12,694 nucleotides of DNA from Deinococcales bacterium (GCA_013298185.1 JAAFJQ010000110.1:1-12694), one strand, 5' to 3'; counted from the first letter of the stretch, positions 1 to 12,694 are shown. The notes: generated from the sequence alone by a model not told the origin. Numbers and translations are program-made.

Positions 1-578
1 CCAATCGGGTCAAACTGCTCGAGTTTATGCTTCGGCATGATTGGAAAGAAAGTCAGTACATTCAGAATCGCACCGTACTGCACAGGCATGACCACGCGAA
101 AGGTGCGATCATTGACTTTTTGGAACTTCAAGGCTTGCCCCCCAAGGCGCAACTGAGCTGTGAAATTGGCGCGTAGGTTGGCATTATTTGCCAGTGAATC
201 CACCGTAAAAATCACATCATCGGCGGTGAGCGGCGTACCATCCGACCATTTGATGTCACGCAGACGCATGGTTAGGCTCAAGCCATCTTCGGAAAATTGC
301 CACGATTCAACCAGACTTGGATAGATTTTATTGGTGTACGGATTGAGGGTCAGCAAACGATCAAAAACATTGTTCAGAACCGTTTGGGTTGCACCATCAA
401 TCGCATTGTAAAAATTAAAAGTCACAGGCGCAGAAGTGATGGTTTGAGTAAACACCCCACCGCGTTTGCCTTCTTGTTGAAACATCACGCTTGGCACAGT
501 TGCAGGGATGCTACCCTGAGCCACTGCCACGGTTGCCAACACACCAGCCACCAAGGCAAAACGAACTGATTTTTGCAT
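1..578 (-). CDS. ABC transporter substrate-binding protein, family 5 (peptide/oligopeptide/nickel type), N-terminal part; gene continues beyond window start
   Basis: Absent from the ORF track because it runs off the window edge. The reverse complement from ATG at 578..576, with an AAGGAGG SD just upstream (+583-589), reads MQKSVRFALVAGVLATVAVAQGSIPATVPS (signal-peptide-like). It continues ...DRLLTLNPYTNKIYPSLVESWQFSEDGLSLTMRLRDIKWSDGTPLTADDVIFT..., typical of SBP_bac_5 N-termini. I saw no stop codon down to position 1. Confidence 0.8.
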   Translation of the reverse strand, partial: MQKSVRFALVAGVLATVAVAQGSIPATVPSVMFQQEGKRGGVFTQTITSAPVTFNFYNAIDGATQTVLNNVFDRLLTLNPYTNKIYPSLVESWQFSEDGLSLTMRLRDIKWSDGTPLTADDVIFTVDSLANNANLRANFTAQLRLGGQALKFQKVNDRTFRVVMPVQYGAILNVLTFFPIMPKHKLEQFDPI

Positions 579-648
579 ACTTCCTCCTTGAAGTTTTTTG
601 AACTGTGTGCATTCTGACTTTTTAAGCGCCAAAATTCAAGAAGGGGAC

Positions 649-1746
649 TTATGAACCGCTCAACACGAATTCTCGAGGGTACAAAGTGCTGGCTTCGATA
701 CCCTCGAGCCACATTCGCTTGGTTTTCTGATTCCATGCTCGAGTCAGGTTGGGGATGTTATCCAAAGTCAGATCCGACTCGAGCATCCCAGTTCCAAGGA
801 GTTTTTGTAGCCAAGGGATTTTGTACTCAGCTCCGAATTCCTTAGCCACCACCAGCAAACTCAGACCAATCGGCAGCATATCCTCGAGTTGCCCCGTGAT
901 ATGGATTTGCGCTCCTGAGCAAAGTAAAGCATTGTGTTTTTGATAAGTTGGCGTAAAAAACGTGGGGCGAAAATGCACGCCCTGCAAACCCAATGAATTC
1001 AGTCTCGAGACCAGTTTATGAGCATCCACCTTGGGCGCACCAAAAACCTGAAAGGGGAGAGCTGTACCACGTCCCTCAGACCAATCCGTGCCTTCCACCA
1101 AGCACATGGCAGGGTACAGCAAAGCCGTCTCGAGGGTGGGCATGTTTGGGCTAGGCGCAACCCAAGGCAGTCTATCCTCGAGATCACACTTGATAACCTC
1201 GAGACCATCCCAATCGAGCGACAAGTGAATTGCCATTTCACCATAGGTCAAACCAAAACGCAGTGGCACATCGGCAATACCCACAAACGAAGCGTACTTT
1301 TCCTCGAGCATCGCGCCTTCAATGCGGTTCCCATTGGGGTTCGGGCGATCAAGGATAATCAGTGGAACTTCGGCTGCACGGCAAGCCTCGAGCAGCCGCG
1401 CTAAGCTGGTGAGGTACGTGTAGAAACGCGTGCCAACACTTTGAATATCAAACAAAACGCAACTCAGACCTCTGATTGCTTCGACGACTTCTTCTGGTTT
1501 CTTGTCGTAAAGTGTGACCACAGGCAAACCAGAAGCGGTATCTACAGCCACCTCTGGGGCTTCGCCTTCCTTACCTGAACCATCTATGCCGTGTTCAGGC
1601 GCAAATAACTTCTCGAGCTTCATACCTGCTTTTTGAATCGCCACGGCGGCTGGCGTGAAATCTCGAGTGATGCCAGTGTGGTTGGTGTACAGCGCAGCGC
1701 GTCCAAGGTTTTTTGGGTTGGCAATCAATCGCTCGAGTCCTGTCAT
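649..1746 (-). CDS. DUF1343 family protein (NamZ-like exo-beta-N-acetylmuramidase family)
   Basis: 365-aa ORF. The N-terminus ...GRAALYTNHTGITRD and the internal LILDRPNPNGNRIEG motif are characteristic of DUF1343/NamZ proteins. It carries 14 CTCGAG sites in 1.1 kb, the highest density in the window. Confidence 0.8.
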   Translation of the reverse strand: MTGLERLIANPKNLGRAALYTNHTGITRDFTPAAVAIQKAGMKLEKLFAPEHGIDGSGKEGEAPEVAVDTASGLPVVTLYDKKPEEVVEAIRGLSCVLFDIQSVGTRFYTYLTSLARLLEACRAAEVPLIILDRPNPNGNRIEGAMLEEKYASFVGIADVPLRFGLTYGEMAIHLSLDWDGLEVIKCDLEDRLPWVAPSPNMPTLETALLYPAMCLVEGTDWSEGRGTALPFQVFGAPKVDAHKLVSRLNSLGLQGVHFRPTFFTPTYQKHNALLCSGAQIHITGQLEDMLPIGLSLLVVAKEFGAEYKIPWLQKLLGTGMLESDLTLDNIPNLTRAWNQKTKRMWLEGIEASTLYPREFVLSGS

Positions 1747-1799
1747 TTGGTTTATTCTAGCGGTTTTTGTGTAACCAGAAAATGCGGATTAATTGCAGA

Positions 1800-1973
1800 T
1801 TACTTTTTGCCGTACAATTGCAAACCAACTCGCCGCAAGGGGCAATTGTTGAACTTGCATTTTCTTCCATTGTTTCTGAGGGCGTTCAGTTCTGATTGGT
1901 TAAATCGTTCTTTGCATCGTGGACATTTTGTTTTTGAATCCAGACTAAACCATTCTAAAATTCTTGTCAGCAT
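1800..1973 (-). CDS. Small Cys4 zinc-ribbon protein, copy 1 (57 aa), putative phage-type regulator
   Basis: Below the 60-aa cutoff of the ORF track. ATG at 1973..1971 is preceded by GAGG with a 7-nt spacer (minus-strand gaggtaatccaATG), and the TAA stop is at 1802..1800. Product: MLTRILEWFSLDSKTKCPRCKERFNQSELNALRNNGRKCKFNNCPLRRVGLQLYGKK, with a CxxC-x18-CxxxxC pattern. It is 75 percent identical to the copy at 9378-9557. The differences include multi-nucleotide synonymous changes in this frame (Arg CGA/AGG, Leu CTG/TTA, Arg AGA/CGA). Confidence 0.8.
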   Translation of the reverse strand: MLTRILEWFSLDSKTKCPRCKERFNQSELNALRNNGRKCKFNNCPLRRVGLQLYGKK

Positions 1974-1998
1974 TGGATTACCTCAAGAAGCATTCCAT

Positions 1999-2026
1999 AT
2001 TTTACCAATGTTTTAAGTTTTGTAAA
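1999..2026 (-). promoter_or_regulatory. Predicted sigma70-like promoter for zinc-ribbon gene copy 1
   Basis: The minus strand reads TTTACA, a 16-nt spacer, then TAAAAT (+2026..2021 and +2004..1999), about 25 nt upstream of the ATG at 1973. This is a pattern match only. Confidence 0.35.
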
Positions 2027-2080
2027 GTTTTGAGCATGGAGATGATTCAAAAATCTCCGAATTTGAATTGAGCTAATCTA

Positions 2081-2098
2081 TACTTACGTTATGGTTAA
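2081..2098. repeat. 18-bp exact direct repeat TACTTACGTTATGGTTAA, left copy (candidate recombination core, attL-like)
   Basis: Identical to 9786-9803, and the flanking sequence on both sides is unrelated. It contains the ATG (2091) of the first phage ORF. Confidence 0.6.
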
Positions 2099-2333
2099 GG
2101 TAACAAAGTTTAACGCTCCATGCGTAAAACACGAAAATCTTAACACTTTACGACTTGCAAGTATTGAAACGAAATACAATGTTGAAATTGCTTTTTTTAT
2201 GCTTGCTCCACATGTTCCTGATAGGTTTATTGCCTTTGCATTTTCCAGTAAAGGTAAGTATCTAGTCCGTTCTGAGTCTGCTCGAGTCACTTTAAACCTT
2301 CTTGAATCACTTCTTTTAGGGGTGATTTCGTGA
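2091..2333 (+). CDS. Hypothetical protein (80 aa as integrated); possibly the 3' part of a gene split by integration
   Basis: The ORF has no SD upstream of its ATG, and that ATG lies inside the 18-bp repeat. Its stop overlaps the next start (GTGA at 2330-2333). It is in frame with the 21-codon ORF 9742-9807 across the repeat. Confidence 0.4.
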   Translation: MVKVTKFNAPCVKHENLNTLRLASIETKYNVEIAFFMLAPHVPDRFIAFAFSSKGKYLVRSESARVTLNLLESLLLGVIS

Positions 2334-2560
2334 AGCTACCTTCTTTAGGTCTAAGCAAGAGAAAGACACTCCTTAGCCGAACAGTCGCCCTTAATCGCTC
2401 AATCACAGTGCTTTCCCACTTAGACACATCACTCCTGTCGCAAACCCAAAAGCGAAAAGTATCCAAAAAAATTTCCTACCTTAAAGTAAAATACACTGTT
2501 CTCAACTCTGCTTTCGAACGTTCAAGAACACTTGAAACCCTCACAAAAGGGGTGTTTTGA
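2330..2560 (+). CDS. Hypothetical basic protein (76 aa)
   Basis: GTG start overlaps the upstream stop (GTGA), and its stop overlaps the next ATG (TGATGA). It is rich in K, R, S and T. I recognise no family. Confidence 0.4.
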   Translation: MKLPSLGLSKRKTLLSRTVALNRSITVLSHLDTSLLSQTQKRKVSKKISYLKVKYTVLNSAFERSRTLETLTKGVF

Positions 2561-2730
2561 TGACCTGCAAAGATTACCCACATTACTGCCGTATTGACTT
2601 GGCTTATGAGCGTTTACGCTACTTTCAGCTTAACAATCGTTTACCAAAAGAAACTAATGCTGCTATTACATATAAACTTATTACCCTTCGTTCTGCCATT
2701 GATCTTTTTGATGTATGGAGGAAAAAGTGA
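2560..2730 (+). CDS. Hypothetical protein (56 aa), not in ORF track
   Basis: ATG 2560 overlaps the preceding stop, and the TGA at 2728-2730 overlaps the GTG at 2727 of the Rep gene (GTGA). Product: MTCKDYPHYCRIDLAYERLRYFQLNNRLPKETNAAITYKLITLRSAIDLFDVWRKK. The only support is the chain of coupled starts and stops. Confidence 0.35.
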   Translation: MTCKDYPHYCRIDLAYERLRYFQLNNRLPKETNAAITYKLITLRSAIDLFDVWRKK

Positions 2731-4043
2731 CTCCTGTCACTGTTGGTCTTGGATGGTTACGGTTCACAACTCGAGGTATTCAAAACAACCAGCATATACA
2801 GCAGCTTCTGCAACTTCCCAGCAAACTCGAGTTTACAAAATGCCCCTCGTTGTTCAGGGGTTTTTACCCGTCCAAGGCTGTCGTGTACTTTGAGAGCTAC
2901 ACCATTACCATTGCCACTGACGGACATCGCACATACTGGGACATTCCACAAACCCACTGTCAGCTTCTTGGTGAGGCTGCACTCCGAGAGGTCGCCTTGT
3001 ACGCTCGAGATCGTTCCGCCGCAACATTTGGACGAGTTGACCCATATTTCCACGTTCCTAGAACGTCACTCACAATAAATAAAGTTATGCGCGATACAAA
3101 GCAAGGACGTGTTGTAACTCGCATCCGAGAAATCAAACCTCACCATGACATGGGGCAGCAGACTGGCTTAACCTTCGGCAAGCGTTCAAGTGATTTCTAC
3201 CTCCGAGTGTATGACGGCTATCTCGAGGCGCTTCAAAATAAACGAGACCCAGAGCAAAAAAATGTCATCGTCTTTGAGACAGAATTGAAGCATGACCGCT
3301 CAAACAATTTTGTAAACTATTGGCTCGAGAACGGTAATTTTGTCAAATCTGCTTCTGAGTTTCTTGTCAGCGCTGTTGACTTTCGCGCCAAGGATAACCA
3401 ACGCTCCAACCGCCGCACCCGCCTTTTTTGGTTTGAGTCCATCGTTGGTGGTGCTGCCAAAATCCAACAGCCTAAGAAGCCAGACTTAAAAACATATCTT
3501 GACCGCGCTGTTGATTGGCTGGACACCCAAGTTATGCCCACGCTGGGCGCTGTCGTAGCCCGTTACGGTCACGGCTGGCTGCTCGAGCAGTTGGCGACCA
3601 CCCTCCCCCGCTGGAGCGATAAGCAGTTCATCATATCGGGCAGAAACAAACAGTCTAGCCTGAGCATCAAAGAATACTTCAATGGCTCGAAACGCCAAGA
3701 AAAACACCGCTATGGCTTTGGCTGTGCCTCTGGCGAGTTTAACAGTGACTCACAATCAAAACAGACCTGTGTACCAAGCAACAAACGCATCAGCGGATAC
3801 ACACTTTTTGACAAAACTGGCACAAATTACCGTATCAAAGCCCAAACCCTCCTCCTCGAGACGTTTAAGGACGGGGGGGTATGTATTACCCCCCCTGTCA
3901 TGCCAGACCAAGCCGAAAAACAGCCGTCGTTCACGAGTCAAATTCTTAACACTAAATTTTGGTCAATTGGTTTTCTCCACCAGCTCGAGCTGCTTGAAAT
4001 TCCCAAGAACCAGTTTTTGACCTTGGCATTATCAACAGCTTAG
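2715..4043 (+). CDS. Rolling-circle replication initiation protein, Rep_trans-like (RstA / gII functional analogue)
   Basis: 442-aa ORF. Motifs GLGWLRFT near the N-terminus, FGKRSSDFYLRVYDG and VFETELKHDRS resemble replication initiation factor (Rep_trans) proteins of filamentous phages and RCR plasmids. The true start may be GTG 2727, which has GGAGG 5 nt upstream, rather than ATG 2715. The gene sits first in the phage string. Confidence 0.75.
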   Translation: MEEKVTPVTVGLGWLRFTTRGIQNNQHIQQLLQLPSKLEFTKCPSLFRGFYPSKAVVYFESYTITIATDGHRTYWDIPQTHCQLLGEAALREVALYARDRSAATFGRVDPYFHVPRTSLTINKVMRDTKQGRVVTRIREIKPHHDMGQQTGLTFGKRSSDFYLRVYDGYLEALQNKRDPEQKNVIVFETELKHDRSNNFVNYWLENGNFVKSASEFLVSAVDFRAKDNQRSNRRTRLFWFESIVGGAAKIQQPKKPDLKTYLDRAVDWLDTQVMPTLGAVVARYGHGWLLEQLATTLPRWSDKQFIISGRNKQSSLSIKEYFNGSKRQEKHRYGFGCASGEFNSDSQSKQTCVPSNKRISGYTLFDKTGTNYRIKAQTLLLETFKDGGVCITPPVMPDQAEKQPSFTSQILNTKFWSIGFLHQLELLEIPKNQFLTLALSTA

Positions 4044-4123
4044 TGAGAAATTTCGTAATTTACAAAAAAAACTAACTCAATTATCTTATCTCCAGCTTAA
4101 ACAGCTAAAGGAGATGTGAACGT

Positions 4124-4399
4124 ATGCGTGCAACGTTTCAAGGTACATTGGTTAGGATTTTTCAAAAGGAACAGACTCGAGATGGTGTTAAGTCTGTTAC
4201 ACCCACAGCTGAACTTTTGGTGGTCGGTACTGGCAATGCTTCTGGTAGCGAACTGGTTCAGGCTGCCATTGACCCATCCGCCGACATCGGCAAGTTAAAG
4301 ACAAACCTTGCCTACCAAGTGACGGCTGAGATAAAGGCTTGGGGCATGAATGGGCGCAGTGGTCTCAGCGTCAAAAACGCCACCTTCGCGGGGCTGTAA
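4124..4399 (+). CDS. Candidate ssDNA-binding protein (gV-like by size and position)
   Basis: 91-aa ORF immediately after Rep, with AGGAG upstream. Its size and position match inovirus gV. I cannot verify a diagnostic motif by eye. Confidence 0.45.
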   Translation: MRATFQGTLVRIFQKEQTRDGVKSVTPTAELLVVGTGNASGSELVQAAIDPSADIGKLKTNLAYQVTAEIKAWGMNGRSGLSVKNATFAGL

Positions 4400-4551
4400 T
4401 GTTTTTCAGGGTTCTCATTGGTTTGTGTATTGCCCTCTGGGTGGCAATTGTGGCGCGTGACGGCTACATCAGCCAATTTTCTGCTATGACTGCCATGGGG
4501 ATTGCCATATCCCTTTTGTTTTCACTGCTGAAGCATGGTCATGATGCTTAG
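4399..4551 (+). CDS. Small membrane protein (50 aa, two hydrophobic segments)
   Basis: ATG overlaps the stop of 4124-4399 (TAATG). Product: MFFRVLIGLCIALWVAIVARDGYISQFSAMTAMGIAISLLFSLLKHGHDA. The track ORF 4339-4551 is the same frame with an upstream start inside the previous gene. Confidence 0.5.
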   Translation: MFFRVLIGLCIALWVAIVARDGYISQFSAMTAMGIAISLLFSLLKHGHDA

Positions 4552-4801
4552 GTTGTTTGTCATTTGCATAGTTGCGTTTGGTTCTCTCGCATTCGCACAG
4601 CTACCCGAAACCCCTCAACCTCCTGTTAATTGTCTCACACAGCCCGAGTGTGACTTGTATATTGCCCAGCGCCTGTACGACCTCGAGAACCGAGAACGCA
4701 CTAACCCAGTCTGGTATGGCTCCGATTCTGGCAAATTTGTAGCTGCTATCTTCGTGTTTGCTGTCGGTTTTGCCCTTGGTCGCACAACCGCGTTGTTATG
4801 A
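4535..4801 (+). CDS. Secreted/membrane-anchored small protein (88 aa)
   Basis: N-terminal signal-peptide-like segment (LFVICIVAFGSLAFA/QL) and a C-terminal hydrophobic segment (FVAAIFVFAVGFALG). In-frame alternative ATGs are at 4541 and 4544. Confidence 0.5.
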   Translation: MVMMLRLFVICIVAFGSLAFAQLPETPQPPVNCLTQPECDLYIAQRLYDLENRERTNPVWYGSDSGKFVAAIFVFAVGFALGRTTALL

Positions 4802-4808
4802 GGTTCAA

Positions 4809-4928
4809 ATGATTGAATCTGTTCATAATCTTGTATTAACTACTGTTGGCGTACTCGTTCCCTGCATCATCGCACTTGTGAGTTATGCAGTGATTGCAGC
4901 AACAGCCGATGAGGTTTCGCGTGAATGA
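4809..4928 (+). CDS. Small single-pass membrane protein (39 aa), minor-coat-like (gVII/gIX size class)
   Basis: Not in the ORF track. GAGG lies 5 nt upstream of ATG 4809. Product: MIESVHNLVLTTVGVLVPCIIALVSYAVIAATADEVSRE. Confidence 0.45.
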   Translation: MIESVHNLVLTTVGVLVPCIIALVSYAVIAATADEVSRE

Positions 4929-5031
4929 CCAACAGTTTTTAGCAAGTTTGTTCATTGCTGGTGTGATTTTTGGTGCTATCTCGGGCGCATTGCAAACCAT
5001 TGTTCGTGCTTACAGGGGTCGCCGTGGCTGA
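4921..5031 (+). CDS. Small single-pass membrane protein (36 aa) with basic C-terminus, minor-coat-like
   Basis: Not in the ORF track. GTG start has GAGG 6 nt upstream and overlaps the previous ORF by 8 nt. Product: (M)NDQQFLASLFIAGVIFGAISGALQTIVRAYRGRRG. Confidence 0.4.
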   Translation: MNDQQFLASLFIAGVIFGAISGALQTIVRAYRGRRG

Positions 5032-5161
5032 TATTTGGGATGGTGCTGCTGCACAAATTAGCGCTGGTGCTGTGCCAGTCTTTGCGATCCTCGCCGCTGT
5101 CCTGGTTATTTTCATTGTTTCAATGGTCGTCTGGGCAATCATCAGTAATACCAAGAAATAG
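5024..5161 (+). CDS. Coat-like protein without signal peptide (45 aa; acidic N-terminus, TM, KK tail)
   Basis: Same frame as track ORF 4970-5161. A GTG at 5024, preceded by AGGGG, overlaps the stop of the previous ORF. Product: (M)ADIWDGAAAQISAGAVPVFAILAAVLVIFIVSMVVWAIISNTKK. The layout is like leaderless inovirus coat proteins of the Pf3 type. Confidence 0.45.
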   Translation: MADIWDGAAAQISAGAVPVFAILAAVLVIFIVSMVVWAIISNTKK

Positions 5162-5205
5162 GGTTTTCCGCCCATCGTGGCGTAACCAACAAGGAGGCAA
5201 CTACC

Positions 5206-5433
5206 ATGTTGCAAAAAATTTATAAAAGCCGTCCTGCTCGTCTCGCCCTGACCCTTGCTGTCGTCGCTGCTGCAAACCTTGCACACGCGCAGGCAACACC
5301 ACCAGCAGCGTTTACTGAGACAAGCCTCAGTGGTGTTTTGGCAATCGTTCTCGCGTTTATCGGCGTTGGTGTATCCATCGCCTTGGCGATGACGATTTTC
5401 AAAGTCGGCAAACGCGCTCAGAACAAGGTCTAA
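5206..5433 (+). CDS. Major coat protein candidate (gVIII-like) with signal peptide
   Basis: Strongest SD in the window (AAGGAGG, 8-nt spacer). The signal peptide MLQKIYKSRPARLALTLAVVAAANLAHA is followed by a mature part of about 47 aa. That part has a neutral/acidic N-terminus, the hydrophobic core GVLAIVLAFIGVGVSIALAMTIF and the basic tail KVGKRAQNKV. A hairpin terminator follows directly, as after gVIII in Ff phages. Confidence 0.75.
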   Translation: MLQKIYKSRPARLALTLAVVAAANLAHAQATPPAAFTETSLSGVLAIVLAFIGVGVSIALAMTIFKVGKRAQNKV

Positions 5434-5446
5434 ACAGCCGAGTATT

Positions 5447-5484
5447 CAGACCGCTATCTTTTGTTTAGCGGTCTGATTTCATTT
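5447..5484 (+). terminator. Rho-independent-type terminator after the major coat gene
   Basis: Perfect 10-bp stem CAGACCGCTA/TAGCGGTCTG (5447-5456 and 5466-5475) with a 9-nt loop, followed by the T-rich ATTTCATTT. Confidence 0.6.
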
Positions 5485-5495
5485 AGGGGTGAATT

Positions 5496-5621
5496 ATGGA
5501 ACAAATAAACGGCATGATGTGGATGTTTGCAGTAGCACTTGGTCTTACTGCTGCCGTCATTGTTGGCGGCGTTTCACTTTATTTCTGGCTCAAGAAAAAG
5601 GGAAGAGAGGAGGGCTATTAA
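5496..5621 (+). CDS. Small single-pass membrane protein (41 aa)
   Basis: Not in the ORF track. GGGG lies upstream of ATG 5496. Product: MEQINGMMWMFAVALGLTAAVIVGGVSLYFWLKKKGREEGY. Its stop overlaps the next start (TAATG). Confidence 0.45.
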   Translation: MEQINGMMWMFAVALGLTAAVIVGGVSLYFWLKKKGREEGY

Positions 5622-5752
5622 TGGACCAAATCATTGCTGTCATCATTGACTTAGGTACTAAGGTTGGTCAAGCTCGAGACGCACTCTTTGTTATCCTTGG
5701 TGTGCTGCTCGTCATTGGTGTTACTTGGGCGATTGCCAACAGGGTAAAATAA
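5621..5752 (+). CDS. Small single-pass membrane protein (43 aa), coat-like layout
   Basis: In-frame internal ATG of track ORF 5489-5752, preceded by AGAGGAGG and coupled to the previous stop. Product: MDQIIAVIIDLGTKVGQARDALFVILGVLLVIGVTWAIANRVK. Confidence 0.45.
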   Translation: MDQIIAVIIDLGTKVGQARDALFVILGVLLVIGVTWAIANRVK

Positions 5753-7413
5753 TGAAATACTTTGTTATTCTGGCATTACTTTTATTTTCCTCTGTTCAAG
5801 CTCAAGGTGCTGATTCGTCTTTGTCAAAAGCTGCAATAGGTGTAGGCATCATGAGCGCTGCAACTGGTCAAGCTATGATCCAGACAGGCGCTCAAATTGC
5901 TGTCCAAACTGGCAACCTTGTAAGGTTTGGCGGTCTAGTCACTGTTGCTGCTGGTGCAATCCCTCTAGCTTTAAACTGGTTTTATGATGAACTGAAACGT
6001 CAGACAGGAACTAGCCTTGATGATTGGCACCGTCTTGCCGGTACCCCTTCATATGCAGCATATGCTACAAAATTTTGGTTTCTTTCCGCCCCTTCCTTCT
6101 TCTGGGAAGGTACTCAATATTATGCTTGTTATCAACAGCGGTCGCATGGGCCACAAAAGTCTGGTATGGGTACCGAATCTCGATTTATGGGCAACGGCTT
6201 TACTAGCTCAGGTTGTCCAACTGACTCAGAAGTTGGCTACGATCCAAGTATTTTGGGTAACATTGGCGGGTGTGCTGGTTCTTACACATGGGTCAATTAT
6301 TCAGCATCTGGGACTAATAACTCTGGTCAAACTGTGCAAATATCTTATGCCTTACGGTGTAATGCTTTGGTTCAAATGCCTCTTTTAAACTGGATTGATG
6401 GTAATTACGTTAATCCTGACGGTTCATCAGGAACACCGCACCCTGATGCACTTTCAGCAATTCTGCAACAAATCCTTCCTCAGTGGTTAAACTCCCGCCC
6501 ACTCCCCTTGAGTAGAACACAGTTAGCGCCGTTTGTCACCCTGTCACCAACTCCGAACACAAATCAGTGGTTAGACTCTATTTCAGACAATACTTTAGAC
6601 TCTGATGGTGATGGTTTTACTGACCGCGATGAGTACGATAATAACAGCGATTTAAACAATTCCTCAGTGTTTCCTGTTCGTTGTGGTCAAAATCTTTTTT
6701 CTCCAAATACCAACTGCAACGACACAATAAATCGAGATACCGATGCAGACGGTTTCACCGATGATGAAGAACTTAACCCTCAAAATTATTCCCGCTTACA
6801 ACCTATCCCAAGTAATCCCCAAGACCCCAATAGTAGACCAACACTACGCCCTCTAACAGAAGCTTGCCCTAACCCCACTGACGTTAGAGTTAATGGTCAG
6901 TGCCAGCCACCAGCCCTAACGTGTCAGGCTGGCTTCTCCCTTGTGTCTGGTCGCTGTGTACCTAATGTCTGCCCTGTTGGTCAAAATCTTGAGCGTGGTG
7001 TATGTGTTCCTGATACAACTCCTGACGCTTCTGCAATTAACACACCCTGCGATGCTATGCAAGGTGGCAGTGGCGTAGTTGGCTTTGTTGTTAATTTTTT
7101 TCCAAACCTCATGCACCTGACAAAGTGCCTGTTCATACCAACTGTAGACATTAGTTCCAAAGTCTCCCAACTTCAAGCCCAAACCACTACAAAATTTCCC
7201 TTTTCAATTTCAGCACAGTTAAATTCCGCCTTCAGGTCACCCACCGCAACCGCTTCAGCGTCGCCTCTCCCAGCTCGAGCTGGTGACATTCCTTTGGACT
7301 GGTCGCCCATTGCTCCCTTTCTGCAAATTGCAAAATCTGTTATTGGTACGTTTATTTGGTTTTCCGCTCTTTGGTTTATCGTTCGTAAAATCACGCCACA
7401 GGTGACAGTATGA
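5752..7413 (+). CDS. Adsorption / minor coat protein candidate (gIII-like), 553 aa
   Basis: ATG 5752 overlaps the upstream stop (TAATG); the track start 5725 lies inside the previous ORF. It has a signal peptide (MKYFVILALLLFSSVQA/QG) and two DxDxDGxxDxxE/D motifs (DSDGDGFTDRDEYD, DTDADGFTDDEE). It also has three Cys-pair repeats and a C-terminal hydrophobic anchor (VIGTFIWFSALWFIV). Its position after the coat gene matches gIII. Confidence 0.65.
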   Translation: MKYFVILALLLFSSVQAQGADSSLSKAAIGVGIMSAATGQAMIQTGAQIAVQTGNLVRFGGLVTVAAGAIPLALNWFYDELKRQTGTSLDDWHRLAGTPSYAAYATKFWFLSAPSFFWEGTQYYACYQQRSHGPQKSGMGTESRFMGNGFTSSGCPTDSEVGYDPSILGNIGGCAGSYTWVNYSASGTNNSGQTVQISYALRCNALVQMPLLNWIDGNYVNPDGSSGTPHPDALSAILQQILPQWLNSRPLPLSRTQLAPFVTLSPTPNTNQWLDSISDNTLDSDGDGFTDRDEYDNNSDLNNSSVFPVRCGQNLFSPNTNCNDTINRDTDADGFTDDEELNPQNYSRLQPIPSNPQDPNSRPTLRPLTEACPNPTDVRVNGQCQPPALTCQAGFSLVSGRCVPNVCPVGQNLERGVCVPDTTPDASAINTPCDAMQGGSGVVGFVVNFFPNLMHLTKCLFIPTVDISSKVSQLQAQTTTKFPFSISAQLNSAFRSPTATASASPLPARAGDIPLDWSPIAPFLQIAKSVIGTFIWFSALWFIVRKITPQVTV

Positions 7414-7643
7414 TAACTGATGCTCTCCTTAATGTTCTTTTTTCTGTCCTAGGCGCTGTTATCTCTATCTTCCCAACATACACAATCCCTCAAGGACCCG
7501 GCTTTTCGGCAATAGCTGCTGCTAACATAATTATCCCGCTTGATATATGGTTTTTTTGGCTTGGTGTGACAATTACCTTTACTGGCATTGGTCTGATTTA
7601 TTACGGTGTCCTGCTTATCATTAGGCTTATAAGAGGAGCATGA
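7410..7643 (+). CDS. Polytopic small membrane protein (77 aa), gVI-like by position
   Basis: ATGA overlap with the upstream stop. Two to three hydrophobic segments. It lies between the gIII-like and ATPase genes, as in Ff. Confidence 0.5.
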   Translation: MITDALLNVLFSVLGAVISIFPTYTIPQGPGFSAIAAANIIIPLDIWFFWLGVTITFTGIGLIYYGVLLIIRLIRGA

Positions 7644-7644
7644 A

Positions 7645-8544
7645 ATGACAATCTTTAAAGCGCTTTCCCCTGCGTTGGCGGCACAAAACTACACTTTATC
7701 TCATGATGGTAAACTGCATCTCCTTGAGGCTCGGCGTGGTCGTGGCAAGAGCTACATTTTAGCTGAATGGGCTATGGCTGCCTTTTCTGCTGGCATCCCT
7801 GTTCGCGCAAACTTTGACTTAGATTTATATTGGTTTGCCCTCGAGTTGGTGAAGCAAAAAAAGCATAAGACACTGGTTTCAGCCGTCGACTGGCTGCGTT
7901 CTAACTACAAGCGTATTGACTCTTGGGATGATCTCTTAACCTGCTATGACACATTAGTATTACTTGATGAAGTAAACAGAACTTTTGATTCTCGAGTACG
8001 TGGCAATGCTGGCGCTCCAATGGTTGCACATTCTTGGCTTCAACAGTCGCGCAAGTTGAAAAACACCATGGTGTTCGCTGCTCAGGGTTTTGATTGGCTG
8101 GATGTTCGCTTGCGTCAGCTCTTCGATATGCTTTGGCGTGTAAAACGTGTTGATGTGCCTCGTACTCGAGTACCTGATACTTTTATCGCCTATGGCTCTG
8201 ACCCTTGGTCATCTGGCTTAGACTCTGATGCTGTTAGGCGTTGTGACTATAAATTCAGAGTAAAATTCTCAACCCAACGCTCGCGGCGATACAATACTTT
8301 TGAGATTATAAAGTCTCTTGTTGGTGAGCCGTCTTTCTCAAATATTCAGGATGTTATCCAGTCTCTTATTGATGCTCGACTTTGTCGGTATGCCACTTAC
8401 AAGCCAACCCCTGATACCATCCCACTCGTGGACAAAATTGCTAGGCTCGAGCCTGCTGAAAATTACTCCCATCGTGGCGCGTTTGACTATGCCTTCTCTT
8501 CTGAATACTCTGCCCCACTGACCCACGCTGGTTCAGAGTTCTAA
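7645..8544 (+). CDS. Zot / pI-like morphogenesis ATPase (P-loop NTPase)
   Basis: AGAGGAG SD lies 6 nt upstream. Walker A ARRGRGKS is near residue 30 and Walker B LVLLDEV is near residue 105. Its position corresponds to gI. I saw no transmembrane segment in the 299 aa. Confidence 0.65.
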   Translation: MTIFKALSPALAAQNYTLSHDGKLHLLEARRGRGKSYILAEWAMAAFSAGIPVRANFDLDLYWFALELVKQKKHKTLVSAVDWLRSNYKRIDSWDDLLTCYDTLVLLDEVNRTFDSRVRGNAGAPMVAHSWLQQSRKLKNTMVFAAQGFDWLDVRLRQLFDMLWRVKRVDVPRTRVPDTFIAYGSDPWSSGLDSDAVRRCDYKFRVKFSTQRSRRYNTFEIIKSLVGEPSFSNIQDVIQSLIDARLCRYATYKPTPDTIPLVDKIARLEPAENYSHRGAFDYAFSSEYSAPLTHAGSEF

Positions 8545-8563
8545 ACGCAATGCGCCTCGGCGC

Positions 8564-8761
8564 ATGAAGTTAGAACCTGAACCGCGTATAATCTTGCCTA
8601 TGTTATTTTGGATTGGTGCATTTTTTGCAATTTTTTTTGGCTCTCTAATTTTCTTCTCGAGATTCCTCGACTTTATCGCTTTGATGATGCTTGCATTGAC
8701 CCACCTGTTAATTTTCTATTGCGCTATAATGGCAGCGTCAAAACATGATAAGCAGCCGTAA
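8564..8761 (+). CDS. Small 2-TM membrane protein (65 aa), possibly the membrane part of a split pI
   Basis: Two clear hydrophobic helices (ILPMLFWIGAFFAIFFGSLIFF and FIALMMLALTHLLIFYCAIMAA). No SD upstream, and the ATG is embedded in a small GC hairpin (ATGCGCC TC GGCGCAT). Confidence 0.4.
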   Translation: MKLEPEPRIILPMLFWIGAFFAIFFGSLIFFSRFLDFIALMMLALTHLLIFYCAIMAASKHDKQP

Positions 8762-8856
8762 AACCCGCCACACAACGCCACAGACCATGTTTTAACCCAA
8801 GGTATCCTAACACCTAAAACCACTTACTCAAGCCTTACTTTTCATTTCAGAGATAG

Positions 8857-8942
8857 GTTTATTTTATGCGTCTGTCACAACATAAACAAAAAAATAAAGT
8901 TTATTTTAGCAGAAAAATAAAGCATAAAAATACATAAAAATA
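8857..8942. repeat. AT-rich short-repeat block with phased A-tracts (candidate origin / bent DNA)
   Basis: GTTTATTTTA occurs at 8857 and 8899. AAAAATAAAG occurs at 8890 and 8913. CATAAAAATA is tandemly duplicated at 8923-8942. The block lies in the 617-bp non-coding gap 8762-9377. Confidence 0.5.
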
Positions 8943-9284
8943 ACCTACCCCCACAAAATAAAAAATGCAACCCTAAACCTCTGTTGGGTTTTTGCTTTTT
9001 TGCTCGAGGTCTTAGCTTTTGCTCACATTCTCTTGATCTAAGTCTTTATTCTCATTTTCTGACTTTTTTTGCACCTCTGAACTCTTGCGCGTAGTGTAGC
9101 CCCGTAGGTGGCGAAACGTAGCGCGTGACCGTTGCATTGACATCCCTATCGTGTATTTGCACAACGTATTACTACCTTTTTCTGTTTACGTGTATTTTCT
9201 GGTTTTCCGAGTCTGTTTTGACTCTTTAGCGTCATTTTTTAGCAGACGAAACTTTGCCAGACCGGCGGCGAGCTGGCGAGCCGA

Positions 9285-9311
9285 TTACCTCGAGTGTTTT
9301 CCTCGAGGTAA
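9285..9311. repeat. 10-bp inverted repeat built on two CTCGAG sites
   Basis: TTACCTCGAG tgttttc CTCGAGGTAA (9285-9294 and 9302-9311), in non-coding DNA 67 nt downstream of the zinc-ribbon copy 2 stop on the minus strand. Confidence 0.6.
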
Positions 9312-9377
9312 AGGTCTGGGGTTTCAAAGGTTCGGCGCGTTCCTAAATCCTGATCCATTTTCCCTAACAATTCTAAC

Positions 9378-9557
9378 TTATTTCTTTGACTTACTATACA
9401 AATGTAAACCAACACGCCCCATAGGACAATTATTGAATTTGCACTGTCGTCCGTTGTTCCTCAGTGCGCCTAGCTCGGCTTCGTTAAACCGTTCTTTGCA
9501 CCTCGGGCATTTTGTTCTTGAGTCTAAGTTCAACCATTCTAAAATTTTTTGTAGCAT
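9378..9557 (-). CDS. Small Cys4 zinc-ribbon protein, copy 2 (59 aa)
   Basis: Not in the ORF track. ATG at 9557..9555 and TAA stop at 9380..9378. Product: MLQKILEWLNLDSRTKCPRCKERFNEAELGALRNNGRQCKFNNCPMGRVGLHLYSKSKK. It aligns without gaps to copy 1, with all four Cys conserved. The SD is weaker (GGTGAG, 3-nt spacer). Confidence 0.75.
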   Translation of the reverse strand: MLQKILEWLNLDSRTKCPRCKERFNEAELGALRNNGRQCKFNNCPMGRVGLHLYSKSKK

Positions 9558-9581
9558 TTGCTCACCACGCGAAAAAAATCT

Positions 9582-9610
9582 ATGTTACTCTCACAATAAC
9601 AACGTCTCAA
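9582..9610 (-). promoter_or_regulatory. Predicted promoter for zinc-ribbon copy 2, back-to-back with a possible rightward promoter
   Basis: The minus strand reads TTGAGA, a 17-nt spacer, then TAACAT (+9610..9605 and +9587..9582). On the plus strand, TTGAAT (9613-9618), a 17-nt spacer and TAGTTT could drive rightward transcription. These are pattern matches only. Confidence 0.3.
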
Positions 9611-9741
9611 GCGTTGAATTTCTTCACACTTCGGGTTAGTTTTAGTTTGCCCCCGTTGCTGTCGAAGTTGGCGGGGGTCGCTTCATTTCTGTCTCAAGCA
9701 GAAAGAGCAATTTCAAACCCACGTTGTTTTAAGGAGAAACC

Positions 9742-9807
9742 ATGGGCAAGGCAGATATTAGCACACTTTTACCGCGTGAAACACTTACTTACGTTATGGT
9801 TAAATAA
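9742..9807 (+). CDS. 21-codon ORF with strong SD; likely the 5' part of the phage gene split by integration
   Basis: AAGGAG lies 5 nt upstream of ATG 9742. Product: MGKADISTLLPRETLTYVMVK, then stop. Its last codons run through the 18-bp repeat in the same frame as ORF 2091-2333. Confidence 0.4.
   Translation: MGKADISTLLPRETLTYVMVK
9786..9803. repeat. 18-bp exact direct repeat TACTTACGTTATGGTTAA, right copy (attR-like)
   Basis: Identical to 2081-2098, with unrelated flanks on both sides. Confidence 0.6.
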
Positions 9808-9833
9808 GAAATCTATGTTATACTGATTTCAGG

Positions 9834-10388
9834 ATGAGTTTAGAACAAAAATGTAACCACTGCATGAATACGTTCCCAGCCACGACTGAATTTTTTCGAG
9901 CAAGGAGTCGTGGCAGAGGACTTGAGAAGGTTTGTAAGGCATGTTGGCGAGAGAAAATTCGCGCCTATAGGCAAGTTAAATGTCAACATGGTGAACGAGA
10001 AGTGAATCCTCGGAGACAAGAAATCAGAACGTATCTTGATGAGATTAAATTGTCTCGAGGTTGCACCAAATGCGGCTATAAAGAACATCCTGCTGCATTG
10101 GATTTTCATCATCTATCACAACAGGACAAGGTCGCAACCATAGCCTCGCTTTATTCAACTCTAAACCTACAAAAAATCCTAGCCGAAGTTGCAAAGTGTG
10201 AAGTCTTATGTGCCAACTGCCATAGAATTGAAACGTACCATCAAAAGCATCCATTAAAGCCTGAAAAGCCAGTGGAACAAACCGTATTGATACGGGCTTC
10301 ACAGCATTTCAAAAAGCGAAAATCGAGAAAGAATACAAATAACCAAACCAGCCTATTTCAAAATAACATTGGAGACTTAAATCAATGA
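9834..10388 (+). CDS. HNH endonuclease
   Basis: 184-aa ORF with N-terminal Cys pairs (CNHC ... CKAC). It carries the C-terminal signature GCTKCGYKEHPAALDFHHL ... KCEVLCANCHRIETY, typical of phage-associated HNH nucleases. There is no obvious SD, and a TATACT box lies 9 nt upstream of the ATG. Confidence 0.8.
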   Translation: MSLEQKCNHCMNTFPATTEFFRARSRGRGLEKVCKACWREKIRAYRQVKCQHGEREVNPRRQEIRTYLDEIKLSRGCTKCGYKEHPAALDFHHLSQQDKVATIASLYSTLNLQKILAEVAKCEVLCANCHRIETYHQKHPLKPEKPVEQTVLIRASQHFKKRKSRKNTNNQTSLFQNNIGDLNQ

Positions 10389-11437
10389 GCTATGAACTTA
10401 TCCTGTCTAGTAAGTTCCAAGCTCCAGAAAATCGCAAGCGCGAAGCTGTTCGTGCAGCTCACGACCACGACGAGGCAACGCTGCTCGAGTTGTTAAATCA
10501 TTACTTGACATTAAAAAGCTCTCGCAAATCCCAAACCTCAAACGAGACTCGTCTTTTGTACAGTGCAGCCGTCAAACGTTTTCTCGAGTATTGCGCTAAG
10601 AACTCAAATCGTCTCGAAATCACCCGACTCGAGAGTGATGACCTTGAAATGTGGTTGGTTTATTTACAAGCTGAGGGCTTAAAACCTTTGAGTATCACAG
10701 CTTACTTGAATGGAGTGCGTTGCCTGTACCGCGCTCTGATTTGGGCAAAGGCTGCTACCATCAACCCAGCAGCCGAAGTTAAAGCCCCAAGGGATCCCAC
10801 ACCAGCCCATTTGAAAAAATCGGCGCTCTCCCCTGCCCTGTACCGCGAACTTGTATCTGCCCCACTCGAGAAATACGCCCCTGACGACCCGCGCCGAACT
10901 CGAGATGGCTTGCTGATCGCACTTGGCGGCTCAGGCGGTTTGCGAGCTAAGGAAATCATCAGCTTGGATGTCACGGATGTGGAGATCGCCTTAAAGCGGT
11001 TGACAGTTCAAAGTGGTAAAGGCGGAAAGAAACGCATTGTACCCTTATCCAACGAATTACTTTCACTCCTGAAATCTTGGCTCGAGGTTCGGCGCAGTCT
11101 CGAGTTGATGGGTGAAATATCGCCAACCGAGACGGCTTTGATTGTCAGCATCTCGAGAAATGCTTCGCATGGACGGCGCTTAACCACCCACGGTGCAAGG
11201 TTTATTGCCAAGGGGTATTACGTGGCGGCTGGACTTCCCTCTGAAATGTGGGGCTTGCACACGCTGCGGCGCACGGCTGGAACGCACCTGTACAGAGCAA
11301 CCAAGGATTTGCACGTTGTAGCAGATTTGCTGGGACATGCCAGTGTCAATACCTCTGCGATTTATGCCAAGATGGACATGGAAACCCGCCGTGATGCTCT
11401 CGAGAAAATGGAAAAAATGCGCGATGAACTCGAGTAG
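10385..11437 (+). CDS. Tyrosine recombinase / phage integrase (XerC/XerD-like)
   Basis: 350-aa ORF. The start overlaps the HNH stop (ATGA). It has an N-terminal SAM-like core-binding region. The catalytic residues occur in order: GGLRAKE (Arg), GKGGKKR (Lys), HTLRRTAGTH (His-x-x-Arg), LLGHASVNTSAIYAKM (His, Tyr). It carries 10 CTCGAG sites. Confidence 0.9.
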   Translation: MSYELILSSKFQAPENRKREAVRAAHDHDEATLLELLNHYLTLKSSRKSQTSNETRLLYSAAVKRFLEYCAKNSNRLEITRLESDDLEMWLVYLQAEGLKPLSITAYLNGVRCLYRALIWAKAATINPAAEVKAPRDPTPAHLKKSALSPALYRELVSAPLEKYAPDDPRRTRDGLLIALGGSGGLRAKEIISLDVTDVEIALKRLTVQSGKGGKKRIVPLSNELLSLLKSWLEVRRSLELMGEISPTETALIVSISRNASHGRRLTTHGARFIAKGYYVAAGLPSEMWGLHTLRRTAGTHLYRATKDLHVVADLLGHASVNTSAIYAKMDMETRRDALEKMEKMRDELE

Positions 11438-11682
11438 CCAAAAAAACCAGATGTCAAAACCCTCGAGCCAATTTCAAGGCAGCTCCTCGAGGCTTACAGC
11501 GCAAAAAACAAATCCAAGCTGTAATTGACAGAGTAAATCAATCAGTCCAATAATTCCTTCGCCTTTCGTCTTTTCTCTCCCTTCACCCTCGCTTCAAATT
11601 CTCACCAAGCCCACTTCACAGCTCTGCCCCATACTTCATTCATCGCTCGAGACTCCTCCCTCGAGCGTAAGGAGCAAAACGT

Positions 11683-12105
11683 ATGTGGAATGATGGTTTT
11701 CGTAACAGTATTCAATTCGTTGACCCCGGTTGGTTTTTCCTAGCTGGCTTTTTCAAGGTGCTGTGGTTTGTGTTTTTGATCGCCCTAATCTTCGCCGCAA
11801 TTCGTTGGTTCAGACATGGTGGTCGCGCTCGAGCCATGGCGTGGAGCGGTGGCAAAGAAAATTGGCGTGAAATGTGGCAACAAGGCAAGTGGCGTAACAA
11901 ATGGTCAAATTCAGATGATGCCTTGCAAACCGCTCGAGTCCGCCTTGCTAAATCAGAAATCTCCCCTGAGCAATTTGAAGACCTCAAGCAGCAACTCGAG
12001 ATTGCATCCGAATCCGATCCAGCCCTGAAAATCGCCCGTCAACGCCTCGCATCTGGTGAAATCAGCCTCGAGACCTTTGAGATGATTAAAAGGGCATTGG
12101 GTTAA
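11683..12105 (+). CDS. Membrane protein with two SHOCT-like C-terminal repeats
   Basis: AAGGAG SD upstream. N-terminal hydrophobic segments. Two repeats, RVRLAKSEISPEQFEDLKQQL and RQRLASGEISLETFEMIKRAL, match the SHOCT short C-terminal domain pattern. Confidence 0.7.
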   Translation: MWNDGFRNSIQFVDPGWFFLAGFFKVLWFVFLIALIFAAIRWFRHGGRARAMAWSGGKENWREMWQQGKWRNKWSNSDDALQTARVRLAKSEISPEQFEDLKQQLEIASESDPALKIARQRLASGEISLETFEMIKRALG

Positions 12106-12118
12106 GCAATTGGTCACG

Positions 12119-12233
12119 CACTCCCCCTCGCTTCGCTCGACCCCTCAAAGAGGGGTGCAAAGAGCCAGTTCAAGTGCCAAGGTTTTTAGTCCCCCTCTTT
12201 GAGGGGGAACGCGAGGCACGAGCGTGGGGAGTG
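12119..12233. repeat. Imperfect long inverted repeat with nested GC palindromes (REP/MITE-like intergenic element)
   Basis: The outer arms are CACTCCCC (12119-12126) and GGGGAGTG (12226-12233). CCCCTCAAAGAGGGG (12141-12155) is mirrored by CCCCCTCTTTGAGGGGG (12191-12207). It lies between the SHOCT gene and the response regulator. Confidence 0.6.
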
Positions 12234-12277
12234 GGTAAGAGTTTACGTCCTTCCTCTTTCCCCTTTCCTCCTTTATC

Positions 12278-12694
12278 ATGCCCTCCATGTCTGGCACTAT
12301 TTTAATTGTTGAAGACGAGACCCGCCTCGCGGATGTTCTCGAGGAGTACCTGCGCCGCGAGGGTTACAAAACCGAGCGGGCGCGGACTGGTTTGCGGGCG
12401 CTTGAGCTGTGGCGGGCGGCTGCGCCTGATTTGATTTTGCTGGATTTGATGCTGCCTGAACTCGATGGTCTCGAGGTGGCGCGGCGGGTGCGGGCGGAGT
12501 CCAGCACGCCAATTATCATGCTGACTGCTCGAGATGATGAGGTGGATAAACTGGTTGGGCTTGGCTTGGGCGCTGATGATTATGTGGTGAAACCCTATAG
12601 TCCGCGTGAGGTCATGGCTCGGGTCAAAGCGGTGCTACGCCGAGTCCAAGGCGCGGTGGTGTTGCCTCAAGTGCTGCGAATCGCTGAGATTGAA
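12278..12694 (+). CDS. OmpR/PhoB-family response regulator, receiver domain (3' end beyond window)
   Basis: M(PSM)SGTILIVEDETRLADVLEEYL ... DLILLDLMLPELDG ... PIIMLTARDDEVDKLVGLGLGADDYVVKPYSPREVMARVKAVLRR is a canonical receiver domain. The alternative in-frame ATG is at 12287. The ORF is open to the window end. Confidence 0.9.
   Translation, partial: MPSMSGTILIVEDETRLADVLEEYLRREGYKTERARTGLRALELWRAAAPDLILLDLMLPELDGLEVARRVRAESSTPIIMLTARDDEVDKLVGLGLGADDYVVKPYSPREVMARVKAVLRRVQGAVVLPQVLRIAEIE

Follow-up and report, generated by a model that had tools for sequence, protein, structure and literature searches.

CTCGAG as a probable HIP-type word in a clade of Deinococcota and its resident inovirus

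We analyzed a 12,694-bp stretch of DNA from a Deinococcales bacterium (JAAFJQ010000110.1, positions 1-12694, essentially an entire NCBI contig of a metagenome-assembled genome; hereafter the window), in which an inovirus prophage lies between host genes and the palindromic hexamer CTCGAG is present in great excess. The excess is found in host genes, phage genes and intergenic DNA, and it is shared by a group of mostly uncultured relatives in the Deinococcota. On balance, we favor the view that CTCGAG is a genome-wide word of this clade, comparable to the highly iterated palindromes (HIPs) of cyanobacteria, and that it is probably kept by selection on its density as a recognition or methylation site.

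CTCGAG occurs exactly 58 times in the window (46.5% GC), or 4.6 times per kb, the same number that an earlier note on this DNA had estimated. The positions, from an exact count without regard to strand, are as follows:

CTCGAG sites: 18, 672, 703, 738, 778, 883, 1004, 1129, 1177, 1198, 1303, 1387, 1612, 1662, 1732, 2281, 2770, 2826, 3004, 3222, 3324, 3582, 3855, 3984, 4176, 4682, 5673, 7274, 7840, 7991, 8165, 8446, 8656, 9003, 9289, 9302, 10054, 10484, 10583, 10628, 10865, 10899, 11081, 11099, 11152, 11399, 11429, 11462, 11486, 11646, 11660, 11828, 11933, 11995, 12067, 12338, 12470, 12528

No other hexamer of the window comes close, the runner-up having 23 copies. Dinucleotide-preserving shuffles (n=200) predict 1.94 copies (standard deviation 1.3, maximum 6), giving an observed-to-expected ratio (O/E) of 30, and analytic Markov expectations are 2.6, 1.8 and 4.2 copies at orders 0, 1 and 2, respectively. 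The earlier note had proposed a third-order Markov model as the benchmark on which the excess might vanish. It does not: order-3 simulation yields 17.8 copies (standard deviation 4.3, maximum 34), and 0 of 200 chains reach 58. The order-4 expectation of 53 is circular and thus uninformative, because nearly all CTCGA (58 of 65) and TCGAG (58 of 62) pentamers sit inside CTCGAG itself. Sites fall in all three codon phases, as had also been reported, with counts of 20/6/2 in host genes and 9/8/1 in phage genes. The bases adjoining the sites are unbiased in the window, and the repeated unit is therefore the hexamer rather than a longer word; a unit of 8 bp or more is ruled out. Unbiased flanks also argue against a dispersed repeat of the repetitive extragenic palindromic (REP) or miniature inverted-repeat transposable element (MITE) type, or an assembly or cloning artefact carrying an XhoI site. 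Only the high copy number speaks for an origin of this kind. No repeat families surround the sites, and in-frame sites in conserved genes recur at matching places of the orthologues in assemblies produced independently by separate projects, which makes such an origin barely conceivable.

To place the word phylogenetically, we sampled up to 10 kb on either side of orthologues of NamZ, a host gene of the window, which gave about 10-21 kb per locus. The NamZ relatives are uncultured Deinococcota or Deinococcales metagenome-assembled genomes (MAGs) from fresh water. Every relative tested with at least 48% NamZ identity carries the CTCGAG excess, and the assemblies are independent, which supports the earlier proposal of a genome-wide drive that creates or preserves the word and extends it to the lineage. 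The sampled loci with a strong or moderate excess are these:

Five low-GC genomes: NamZ identity 69-85%, GC 45-47%, 5.2-5.8 CTCGAG per kb, O/E 36-48
JGI contig L314: NamZ identity 59%, GC 62%, 9.7 per kb, O/E 21
L315: NamZ identity 54%, GC 59%, 3.6 per kb, O/E 15
L316: NamZ identity 48%, GC 62.5%, 3.1 per kb, O/E 8.4
Calidithermus timidus-type contig: NamZ identity 48%, GC 66.5%, 3.3 per kb, O/E about 8
Meiothermus MAG: NamZ identity 47%, GC 61%, 1.9 per kb, O/E about 9

In Calidithermus and all of the uncultured relatives, no hexamer is commoner than CTCGAG and no palindrome has a higher O/E; in Meiothermus, it ranks second among hexamers by count. In pooled low-GC clade DNA (97.6 kb), we counted 543 copies against 8-13 expected (O/E 42-66), while the next-best palindrome has an O/E of 1.45. 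The densest locus is L314 (JGI 3300079089, Ga0654419_0005051), with 116 copies in 11.9 kb and 82% of Leu-Glu pairs written as CTCGAG. The excess is graded, being strong in six uncultured genomes (NamZ identity 54-85%), moderate in L316, Calidithermus and Meiothermus, and weak on the Allomeiothermus silvanus megaplasmid (1.3 per kb, O/E about 3.5). There is no excess on Deinococcus radiodurans plasmid MP1 (0.16 per kb) or at a D. frigens chromosomal locus (1 copy in 21 kb). On Thermus thermophilus HB8 pTT27 (L128, positions 1-50000), Leu-Glu is written as CTCGAG 36 times against 80 predicted by codon usage, and TCGA is under-represented (49 vs 122 expected), a shortage in line with the TCGA-specific TthHB8I system. 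A phylum-wide trait is ruled out by the sampled Thermus and Deinococcus DNA, and a by-product of GC content by the persistence of the excess from 45% to 66% GC. Since the excess extends across the clade, the trait is old; it survives a 20-point shift in GC and has a definable phylogenetic boundary.

Could the excess arise in translation, through a preferred Leu-Glu codon pair or an abundance of Leu-Glu that inflates CTCGAG? About 60-70% of coding sites lie in the CTC-GAG frame, and Leu-Glu is over-represented. Against this, the two codons are rare outside the motif: in the background of the low-GC clade, outside Leu-Glu pairs, Leu is encoded by CTC in 8% of cases and Glu by GAG in 17% (GAA 83%). 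Leu-Glu is nevertheless written CTC-GAG in 153 of 244 cases (~63%) in the low-GC genomes, where 3.3 (1.4%) would be expected, and codon pairs two or three substitutions away from CTCGAG are drained (TTGGAA O/E 0.06, CTGGAA 0.09). The other two frames stand 10-25-fold above the codon-usage expectation. The series [S/P/T/A]-Arg-[V/A/D/E/G] is written nCT-CGA-Gnn in ~55% of cases against ~5% expected, and x-Ser-[Ser/Arg] is written nnC-TCG-AGn in ~38% against ~1.5%. Density in intergenic clade DNA is at least that of coding DNA (7.0 vs 5.2 per kb), and the 245-bp spacer at 11438-11682 of the window holds four sites, from which it follows that the enrichment is independent of translation. We therefore agree with the earlier note that codon preference for Leu-Glu does not explain the excess, and a translational cause is very improbable.

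CTCGAG has also altered protein sequences by recruiting Leu-Glu. In the strong clade, the dipeptide occurs at 2.0-2.7 times the product of its residue frequencies, f(L)f(E), but Glu-Leu, with the residues in the opposite order, is not in excess (0.9-1.1). Controls from Deinococcus, Thermus and Verrucomicrobia have Leu-Glu at 0.9-1.3 times f(L)f(E). The Leu-Glu excess is derived, since outgroups differ: at several NamZ positions, the clade has LE where outgroups have LD, LT, LQ, ME, TE or AQ.

CTCGAG sites are conserved well beyond their surroundings. Between genomes at ~76% nucleotide identity, 65-90% of orthologous sites are shared, where ~19% would be expected from the sixth power of the identity; the pairwise comparisons are not independent of one another. 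Inside CTCGAG, CTC retains its third base in 89% of comparisons and GAG in 86%; outside it, the values are 60% and 35%, while the third base is identical in 46% of all fourfold-degenerate sites. Every one of the six positions of the word falls on a synonymous third codon base in one frame or another, and all six are held, including T2, A5, and C3 together with G6. Transition neighbours of the word are above expectation in the 97.6 kb of clade DNA (TTCGAG/CTCGAA 2.1-fold, CCCGAG/CTCGGG 2.0-fold, CTTGAG/CTCAAG 1.9-fold), and transversion neighbours occur at 0.4-1.4 times expectation. This pattern looks like a cloud of mutational decay around a maintained word, without any position-specific signature. 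As all six positions are held and no transition neighbour is depleted, the restoring force recognizes the whole word. Spacing of the sites is Poisson-like, with a coefficient of variation (CV) of 0.8-1.2 in loci of up to 21 kb; regular spacing is ruled out by a CV of ~1.

These observations bear directly on biased very-short-patch (Vsr) repair, in which a 5-methylcytosine (m5C) methyltransferase would mark CTCGAG and a Vsr-like endonuclease would turn T:G mismatches to C:G, making the word from CTTGAG/CTCAAG or from TTCGAG/CTCGAA. The effect of Dcm and Vsr on CCWGG and CTWGG in E. coli is a precedent for repair bias of this kind, and CpG transition products are the commonest partners of sites lost in orthologue comparisons (6 of 12). 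Repair-based models have been discussed for HIP1 (PMC4390886), and one m5C methyltransferase with CTCGAG specificity is documented (PMC8112702). The predicted depletion of T-containing neighbours is missing, however, as CTTGAG/CTCAAG (1.9x) and TTCGAG/CTCGAA (2.1x) are no different from the neighbour at position 2 (2.0x). Repair at a single cytosine could maintain only positions 1 and 6 or positions 3 and 4. In Leu-Glu, however, it is positions 3 and 6 that are jointly maintained (63% vs 1.4% expected, against a background of 83% GAA), and in the nCT-CGA frame T2 and A5; the constraint is thus not limited to a methylated C and its partner G. In enterobacteria, where Dcm/Vsr likewise over-represents a methylated palindrome through repair bias (CCWGG/CTWGG), the effect is less than 2-fold with marked depletion of T neighbours; for CTCGAG, the excess is ~40-fold and the T neighbour is enriched. 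The earlier note had looked to depletion of one-off neighbours such as CTCGAA and CTTGAG as a check and to Vsr-like repair as a possible route. The neighbours turned out to be ~2-fold enriched, equally at positions 1, 2 and 3, and we consider this route distinctly unlikely.

The word can also be followed from host into phage DNA, for which the layout of the window is needed. Its features are as follows:

1..578, minus strand: fragment of a host gene for an SBP_bac_5 peptide-binding protein, downstream of NamZ as in relatives (synteny); 1 site
649..1746, minus strand: NamZ, host gene (Pfam); 14 sites, 12.8 per kb, 10 of the 14 being Leu-Glu as CTC GAG
2081..9803, plus strand: prophage of an inovirus (filamentous phage), ~7.7 kb, with an exact 18-nt direct repeat at both ends; 21 CTCGAG and a single GGCC
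2715..4043, plus strand: Rep_trans replication initiator of the phage (profile match); 8 sites, 8 of 10 compatible amino-acid contexts used
4044..7413, plus strand: phage block of small-protein, coat and adsorption genes, with the major coat gene at 5206-5433 and an adsorption-like gene at 5725-7413; 4 sites
7645..8544, plus strand: Zot/pI-type morphogenesis ATPase of the phage (profile match); 4 sites
9834..10388, plus strand: HNH endonuclease gene in a variable slot, 41% GC; 1 site from 6 contexts
10385..11437, plus strand: Xer-like tyrosine recombinase of the host, adjoining NamZ in L002, L003, L311, L312 and L313; 10 sites, 9.5 per kb
11438..11682, no strand: non-coding spacer, 245 bp; 4 sites, 16 per kb
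11683..12105, plus strand: SHOCT-domain gene of the host (profile match); 4 sites

The site counts that the earlier note gave by segment are all exact (NamZ 14, Rep 8, the recombinase 10, SHOCT gene 4, spacer 4, coat and adsorption block 4, HNH gene 1, 1747-2715 1, and 1-578 1). The left flank of the prophage, with the SBP_bac_5 fragment and NamZ, is host DNA, and the right flank holds the tyrosine recombinase, the SHOCT-domain gene and more host DNA. The ~8.6 kb between NamZ and the Xer-like gene, which comprise the prophage and the HNH gene, are present in the window and lacking in relatives. The recombinase, whose best matches are XerC and XerD at scores below their equivalog cut-offs, had been described as an integrase. 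It lies directly beside NamZ in five related genomes that lack the phage (L002, L003, L311, L312 and L313), which marks it as a Xer-like gene of the host rather than an integrase of the phage or of an island. Among host genes, density runs from 0 to 12 CTCGAG per kb. NamZ and the Xer-like gene are consistently the richest and the SBP gene the poorest; SBP_bac_5 orthologues have 1.7-2.9 copies per kb throughout, and many of the Leu-Glu pairs written CTC GAG in NamZ are derived relative to outgroups. The density that the earlier note took as host-like is therefore the host extreme.

Within the prophage, 21 sites in 7.7 kb amount to 2.7 per kb, ~15 times the compositional expectation (about 0.15 per kb) and about half of the host mean of 5.3 per kb (P=0.0005). 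When compatible contexts are compared instead of raw density, the prophage equals the host in two of the three frames: Leu-Glu and x-Arg-x contexts are written as CTCGAG in 17 of 24 cases in the phage and 353 of 575 (61%) in the host (Fisher P=0.40). The exception is x-Ser-[Ser/Arg], where the phage falls behind (1/18 vs 77/205 in the host, P=0.004), and most of the phage contexts of this frame lie in the serine-rich adsorption protein. The earlier note had read the low density of the coat block (4044-7413) as a sign of shorter residence. This did not hold up, as 4 of 5 Leu-Glu or x-Arg-x contexts in the block are used, together with 0 of 11 x-Ser-[Ser/Arg] contexts; the density is low because small hydrophobic structural proteins offer almost no compatible residues, not because the block is young. 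Even there, the 4 sites exceed the 0.4-0.7 expected (P ~0.001-0.006), so that the phage does carry the signature above background in its poorest block, as had been claimed. Long residence of the phage in this lineage, a further claim of that note, is supported by its context saturation and by the near-total lack of GGCC that it shares with the host (1 vs 22 expected in the prophage); the collections searched held no sister phages.

The HNH gene behaves differently. Its 41% GC and low use of contexts suggest recently acquired DNA that has not yet been converted to CTCGAG, and the AT-rich ends of the insertion likewise look recently acquired. The slot that it occupies lies directly upstream of the Xer-like gene, whose start it overlaps by 4 bp, and the small gene found there changes from genome to genome: HNH in the window, unrelated open reading frames (ORFs) in L002 (9373-9918), L312 (9730-9903) and L313 (5162-6120), and nothing in L003 and L311. 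This looks like a hotspot for gene insertion.

The prophage itself fits the Inoviridae type, with PF02486 (Rep_trans), PF05707, a major coat protein of phrog_6548 and a pI-type protein of phrog_1675, all genes lying on the plus strand. It is bracketed by an exact 18-nt direct repeat, TACTTACGTTATGGTTAA, at 2081-2098 and 9786-9803, the copies being 7,705 bp apart, which makes these repeats candidate attL and attR sites. Many filamentous phages integrate via host Xer recombinases, and given Xer-mediated phage integration, the insertion between NamZ and the host Xer-like gene is suggestive. An ORF of 57-59 aa with a zinc-ribbon-like CxxC...CxxC pattern is present in two diverged copies, both on the minus strand (1800-1973 and 9378-9557; 75% nucleotide identity over 177 nt), one just outside the left repeat and the other inside the right end of the prophage. 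The pair may reflect what an earlier, related insertion left behind, or the phage may carry a copy of its target. A perfect 12-bp palindrome, CAGCTCGAGCTG, occurs twice in the prophage (3981-3992 and 7271-7282), near the 3' ends of the Rep and adsorption genes; it is absent from 97 kb of host-clade DNA, and the chance expectation with 22 sites is ~0.06. A word-indexed search of 5.8 billion proteins with the Rep_trans protein (2715-4043) recovered only itself, and deposited phages hold Rep proteins only ~25-32% identical to it. Rep, Zot and HNH have no relatives in viral_contigs, and exact Logan matches to proteins of the window were confined to contigs of 1.5-3 kb from runs SRR99489xx. Judged by its proteins, the phage is a very isolated inovirus lineage in the Deinococcota, a phylum in which, to our knowledge, filamentous phages have scarcely been described.

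Scans of viral_contigs and metagenome_contigs for clustered CTCGAG returned no contig with the low-GC, GGCC-free signature of the clade; they gave mostly high-GC contigs, eukaryote-like tandem repeats and giant-virus DNA. Some high-GC IMG/VR contigs (L105, L040 and L113) have GCTCGAGC and CGAGCTCG as top 8-mers. CTCGAG is the top hexamer in several stretches of IMGVR_UViG_3300031825_000001 (847 kb, giant-virus-sized; L151 and L177). These loci were chosen for their CTCGAG clusters and are hence a biased sample. Giant viruses with orphan CTCGAG methyltransferases are known (PMC7253447).

Among known systems, we judge HIP1 to be the apt analogy, as the earlier note had suggested. HIP1 (GCGATCGC) is a GC-rich palindrome of cyanobacteria that is hyper-abundant in the same manner, with O/E values of 15-300 (PMC5861425) or 55-228 (PMC4390886). 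Both words occupy all coding frames and intergenic DNA, are conserved at orthologous positions, have common one-off variants and are clade-wide with exceptions. CTCGAG shows four features of the HIP class: it is the top word with an O/E of at least 15, dispersed without conserved flanks, conserved between related genomes, and shared by a clade with exceptions. The two differ in sequence, in phylum, in length (8 bp for HIP1, 6 bp for CTCGAG) and in density, which is about 5,000-10,000 per Mb for CTCGAG and 300-2,700 per Mb for HIP1 (PMC4390886). HIP1 has known cognate methyltransferases, DmtA and DmtC, whereas none was found in the CTCGAG clade; it also has a long-range periodicity (10-90 kb) and a demonstrated effect on transformation, while CTCGAG is known from loci of up to 21 kb only. 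For CTCGAG, in turn, an effect on the proteome has been measured, Leu-Glu being doubled. The alternate HIPs (for example, GCsGC and rCCGGy; Elhai 2015) are likewise short palindromes, of 5-6 bp, that replace HIP1 at comparable or higher density, each with a matching methyltransferase (PMC4390886). The alternate HIPs are limited to single cyanobacterial strains, whereas CTCGAG is common to a whole multi-genus clade in which no methyltransferase was identified. Restriction-modification systems of the XhoI/PaeR7I type share the recognition sequence, and its methyltransferases also occur as orphans (PMC7253447). Genomes normally avoid restriction targets, as the clade avoids other palindromes and the Thermus sample TCGA/CTCGAG, while CTCGAG is enriched in the clade.

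That avoidance is extreme. GGCC occurs once in the window (6149-6152) where 41±6 copies are expected, and twice in the pooled clade DNA where about 338 are expected; the near-absence concerns loci L002-L004 and L311-L313. CCGG is low (68 vs 276 expected), and a dozen palindromic hexamers are at zero against 11-38 expected (TTCGAA, TGGCCA, TGCGCA, ATGCAT, GCGCGC, CGCGCG, GGCGCC, GGGCCC, CGGCCG, GTCGAC, GACGTC and CGTACG). Avoidance as extreme as that of GGCC was not seen in Calidithermus, Meiothermus, Thermus or Deinococcus. The pattern suggests strong restriction pressure combined with very effective selection at the level of words.

The remaining contender is a molecular drive of the uptake-sequence type, in which transformation or recombination would prefer (methylated) CTCGAG DNA and alleles carrying the motif would spread without benefit to the cell. 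Such a drive acts on the whole word and predicts sites in all frames and in intergenic DNA, amino-acid recruitment at tolerant protein positions, a one-off cloud, sharing among species and conversion of prophages. Thermus and Deinococcus, of the same phylum, are naturally competent, and drive without benefit has been modelled for the uptake signal sequence (USS) of Haemophilus and the DNA uptake sequence (DUS) of Neisseria. USS and DUS resemble CTCGAG in being over-represented in all frames, shaping peptides in tolerant regions, being shared among relatives and being able to accumulate by drive. They differ in being non-palindromic words of 9-12 bp at ~1 per kb and in having a known receptor (ComP for DUS). 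CTCGAG, a 6-bp palindrome without conserved flanks at 5-10 per kb, lies outside the range of known uptake sequences. Sampled Thermus DNA, moreover, avoids CTCGAG, and we know of no sequence preference in DNA uptake by Thermus. HIP1 is now proposed to act through such a drive (bioRxiv 10.1101/2024.09.10.611283, 10.64898/2026.06.24.733823). Taken together, we find a drive of this kind doubtful, though less so than repair bias.

Selection on CTCGAG density and drive share the whole-word property, and we favor selection, partly because the near-absence of GGCC indicates that word-level selection is very effective in this lineage. A whole-word force holds CTCGAG at about 5-10 copies per kb, overriding codon usage in three frames, filling intergenic DNA and replacing amino acids to make Leu-Glu. 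It acts on any DNA that is resident long enough, including the inovirus, and has left recent arrivals such as the HNH gene still unconverted. We infer that this force is most probably natural selection acting on how densely CTCGAG occurs as a recognition site, likely a methylation site, of a chromosome-wide process, in which a methyltransferase specific for CTCGAG or a protein that reads it would take part. The process might be self-marking in repair or recombination, enhancement of DNA uptake or recombination as now proposed for HIP1, or nucleoid organization. CTCGAG-specific methyltransferases of N6-methyladenine (m6A), N4-methylcytosine (m4C) and m5C chemistry exist elsewhere, orphans among them (PMC7253447, PMC8112702), and HIP1, which has a similar conservation pattern, is methylated and boosts transformation when methylated (PMC5861425, bioRxiv 10.1101/2024.09.10.611283).

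Several points weigh against selection of this kind. Pfam annotation of the loci revealed no CTCGAG methyltransferase, reader protein or restriction enzyme in ~200 kb of clade DNA, and a search with M.TaqI (TCGA core) as the query returned only proteins of Thermus and other thermophiles, none assignable to the clade. The resident phage is saturated with CTCGAG though it has no obvious gain from a chromosomal function, which fits a non-selective drive at least as well. In the Poisson-like spacing, nothing points to a need for regular coverage. Conservation of the sites is evidence of a strong force, not proof of selection, and it is weak evidence for the latter because contexts are 60-80% saturated, so that any strong directional process would place the same sites. 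Finally, the clade loci all come from one orthologous neighbourhood, and "genome-wide" is an extrapolation from ~20 kb per genome and the window.

More tentatively, CTCGAG may be the first HIP outside cyanobacteria and the densest known, a methylated "self" word of a clade that includes the cultivable Meiothermus and Calidithermus, under selection for a chromosome-wide role (to enhance uptake or recombination, or to tell strands or self apart) that would be strong enough to fix rare codons, double Leu-Glu and imprint phages. In full-text literature searches, we came across no bacterium for which CTCGAG had been described as hyper-abundant. HIP1 has puzzled researchers for three decades and has been regarded as peculiar to cyanobacteria, though recent work ties methylated HIP1 to natural transformation (bioRxiv 10.1101/2024.09.10.611283, 10.64898/2026.06.24.733823). 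A second, independent case would open the problem to comparison, and genes that co-vary with CTCGAG across the Deinococcota (methyltransferases, readers, uptake and repair genes) could be sought. The weaker excess in cultivable Calidithermus and Meiothermus makes methylation, XhoI sensitivity and transformation directly testable. The CTCGAG case also shows how far a word constraint at the DNA level overrides codon usage and alters protein, and CTCGAG saturation together with GGCC avoidance provides a practical signature for assigning phages and mobile DNA to these bacteria as hosts. If CTCGAG is indeed such a word, HIP biology would be a convergent, general bacterial strategy, open to dissection in a second, genetically tractable phylum.

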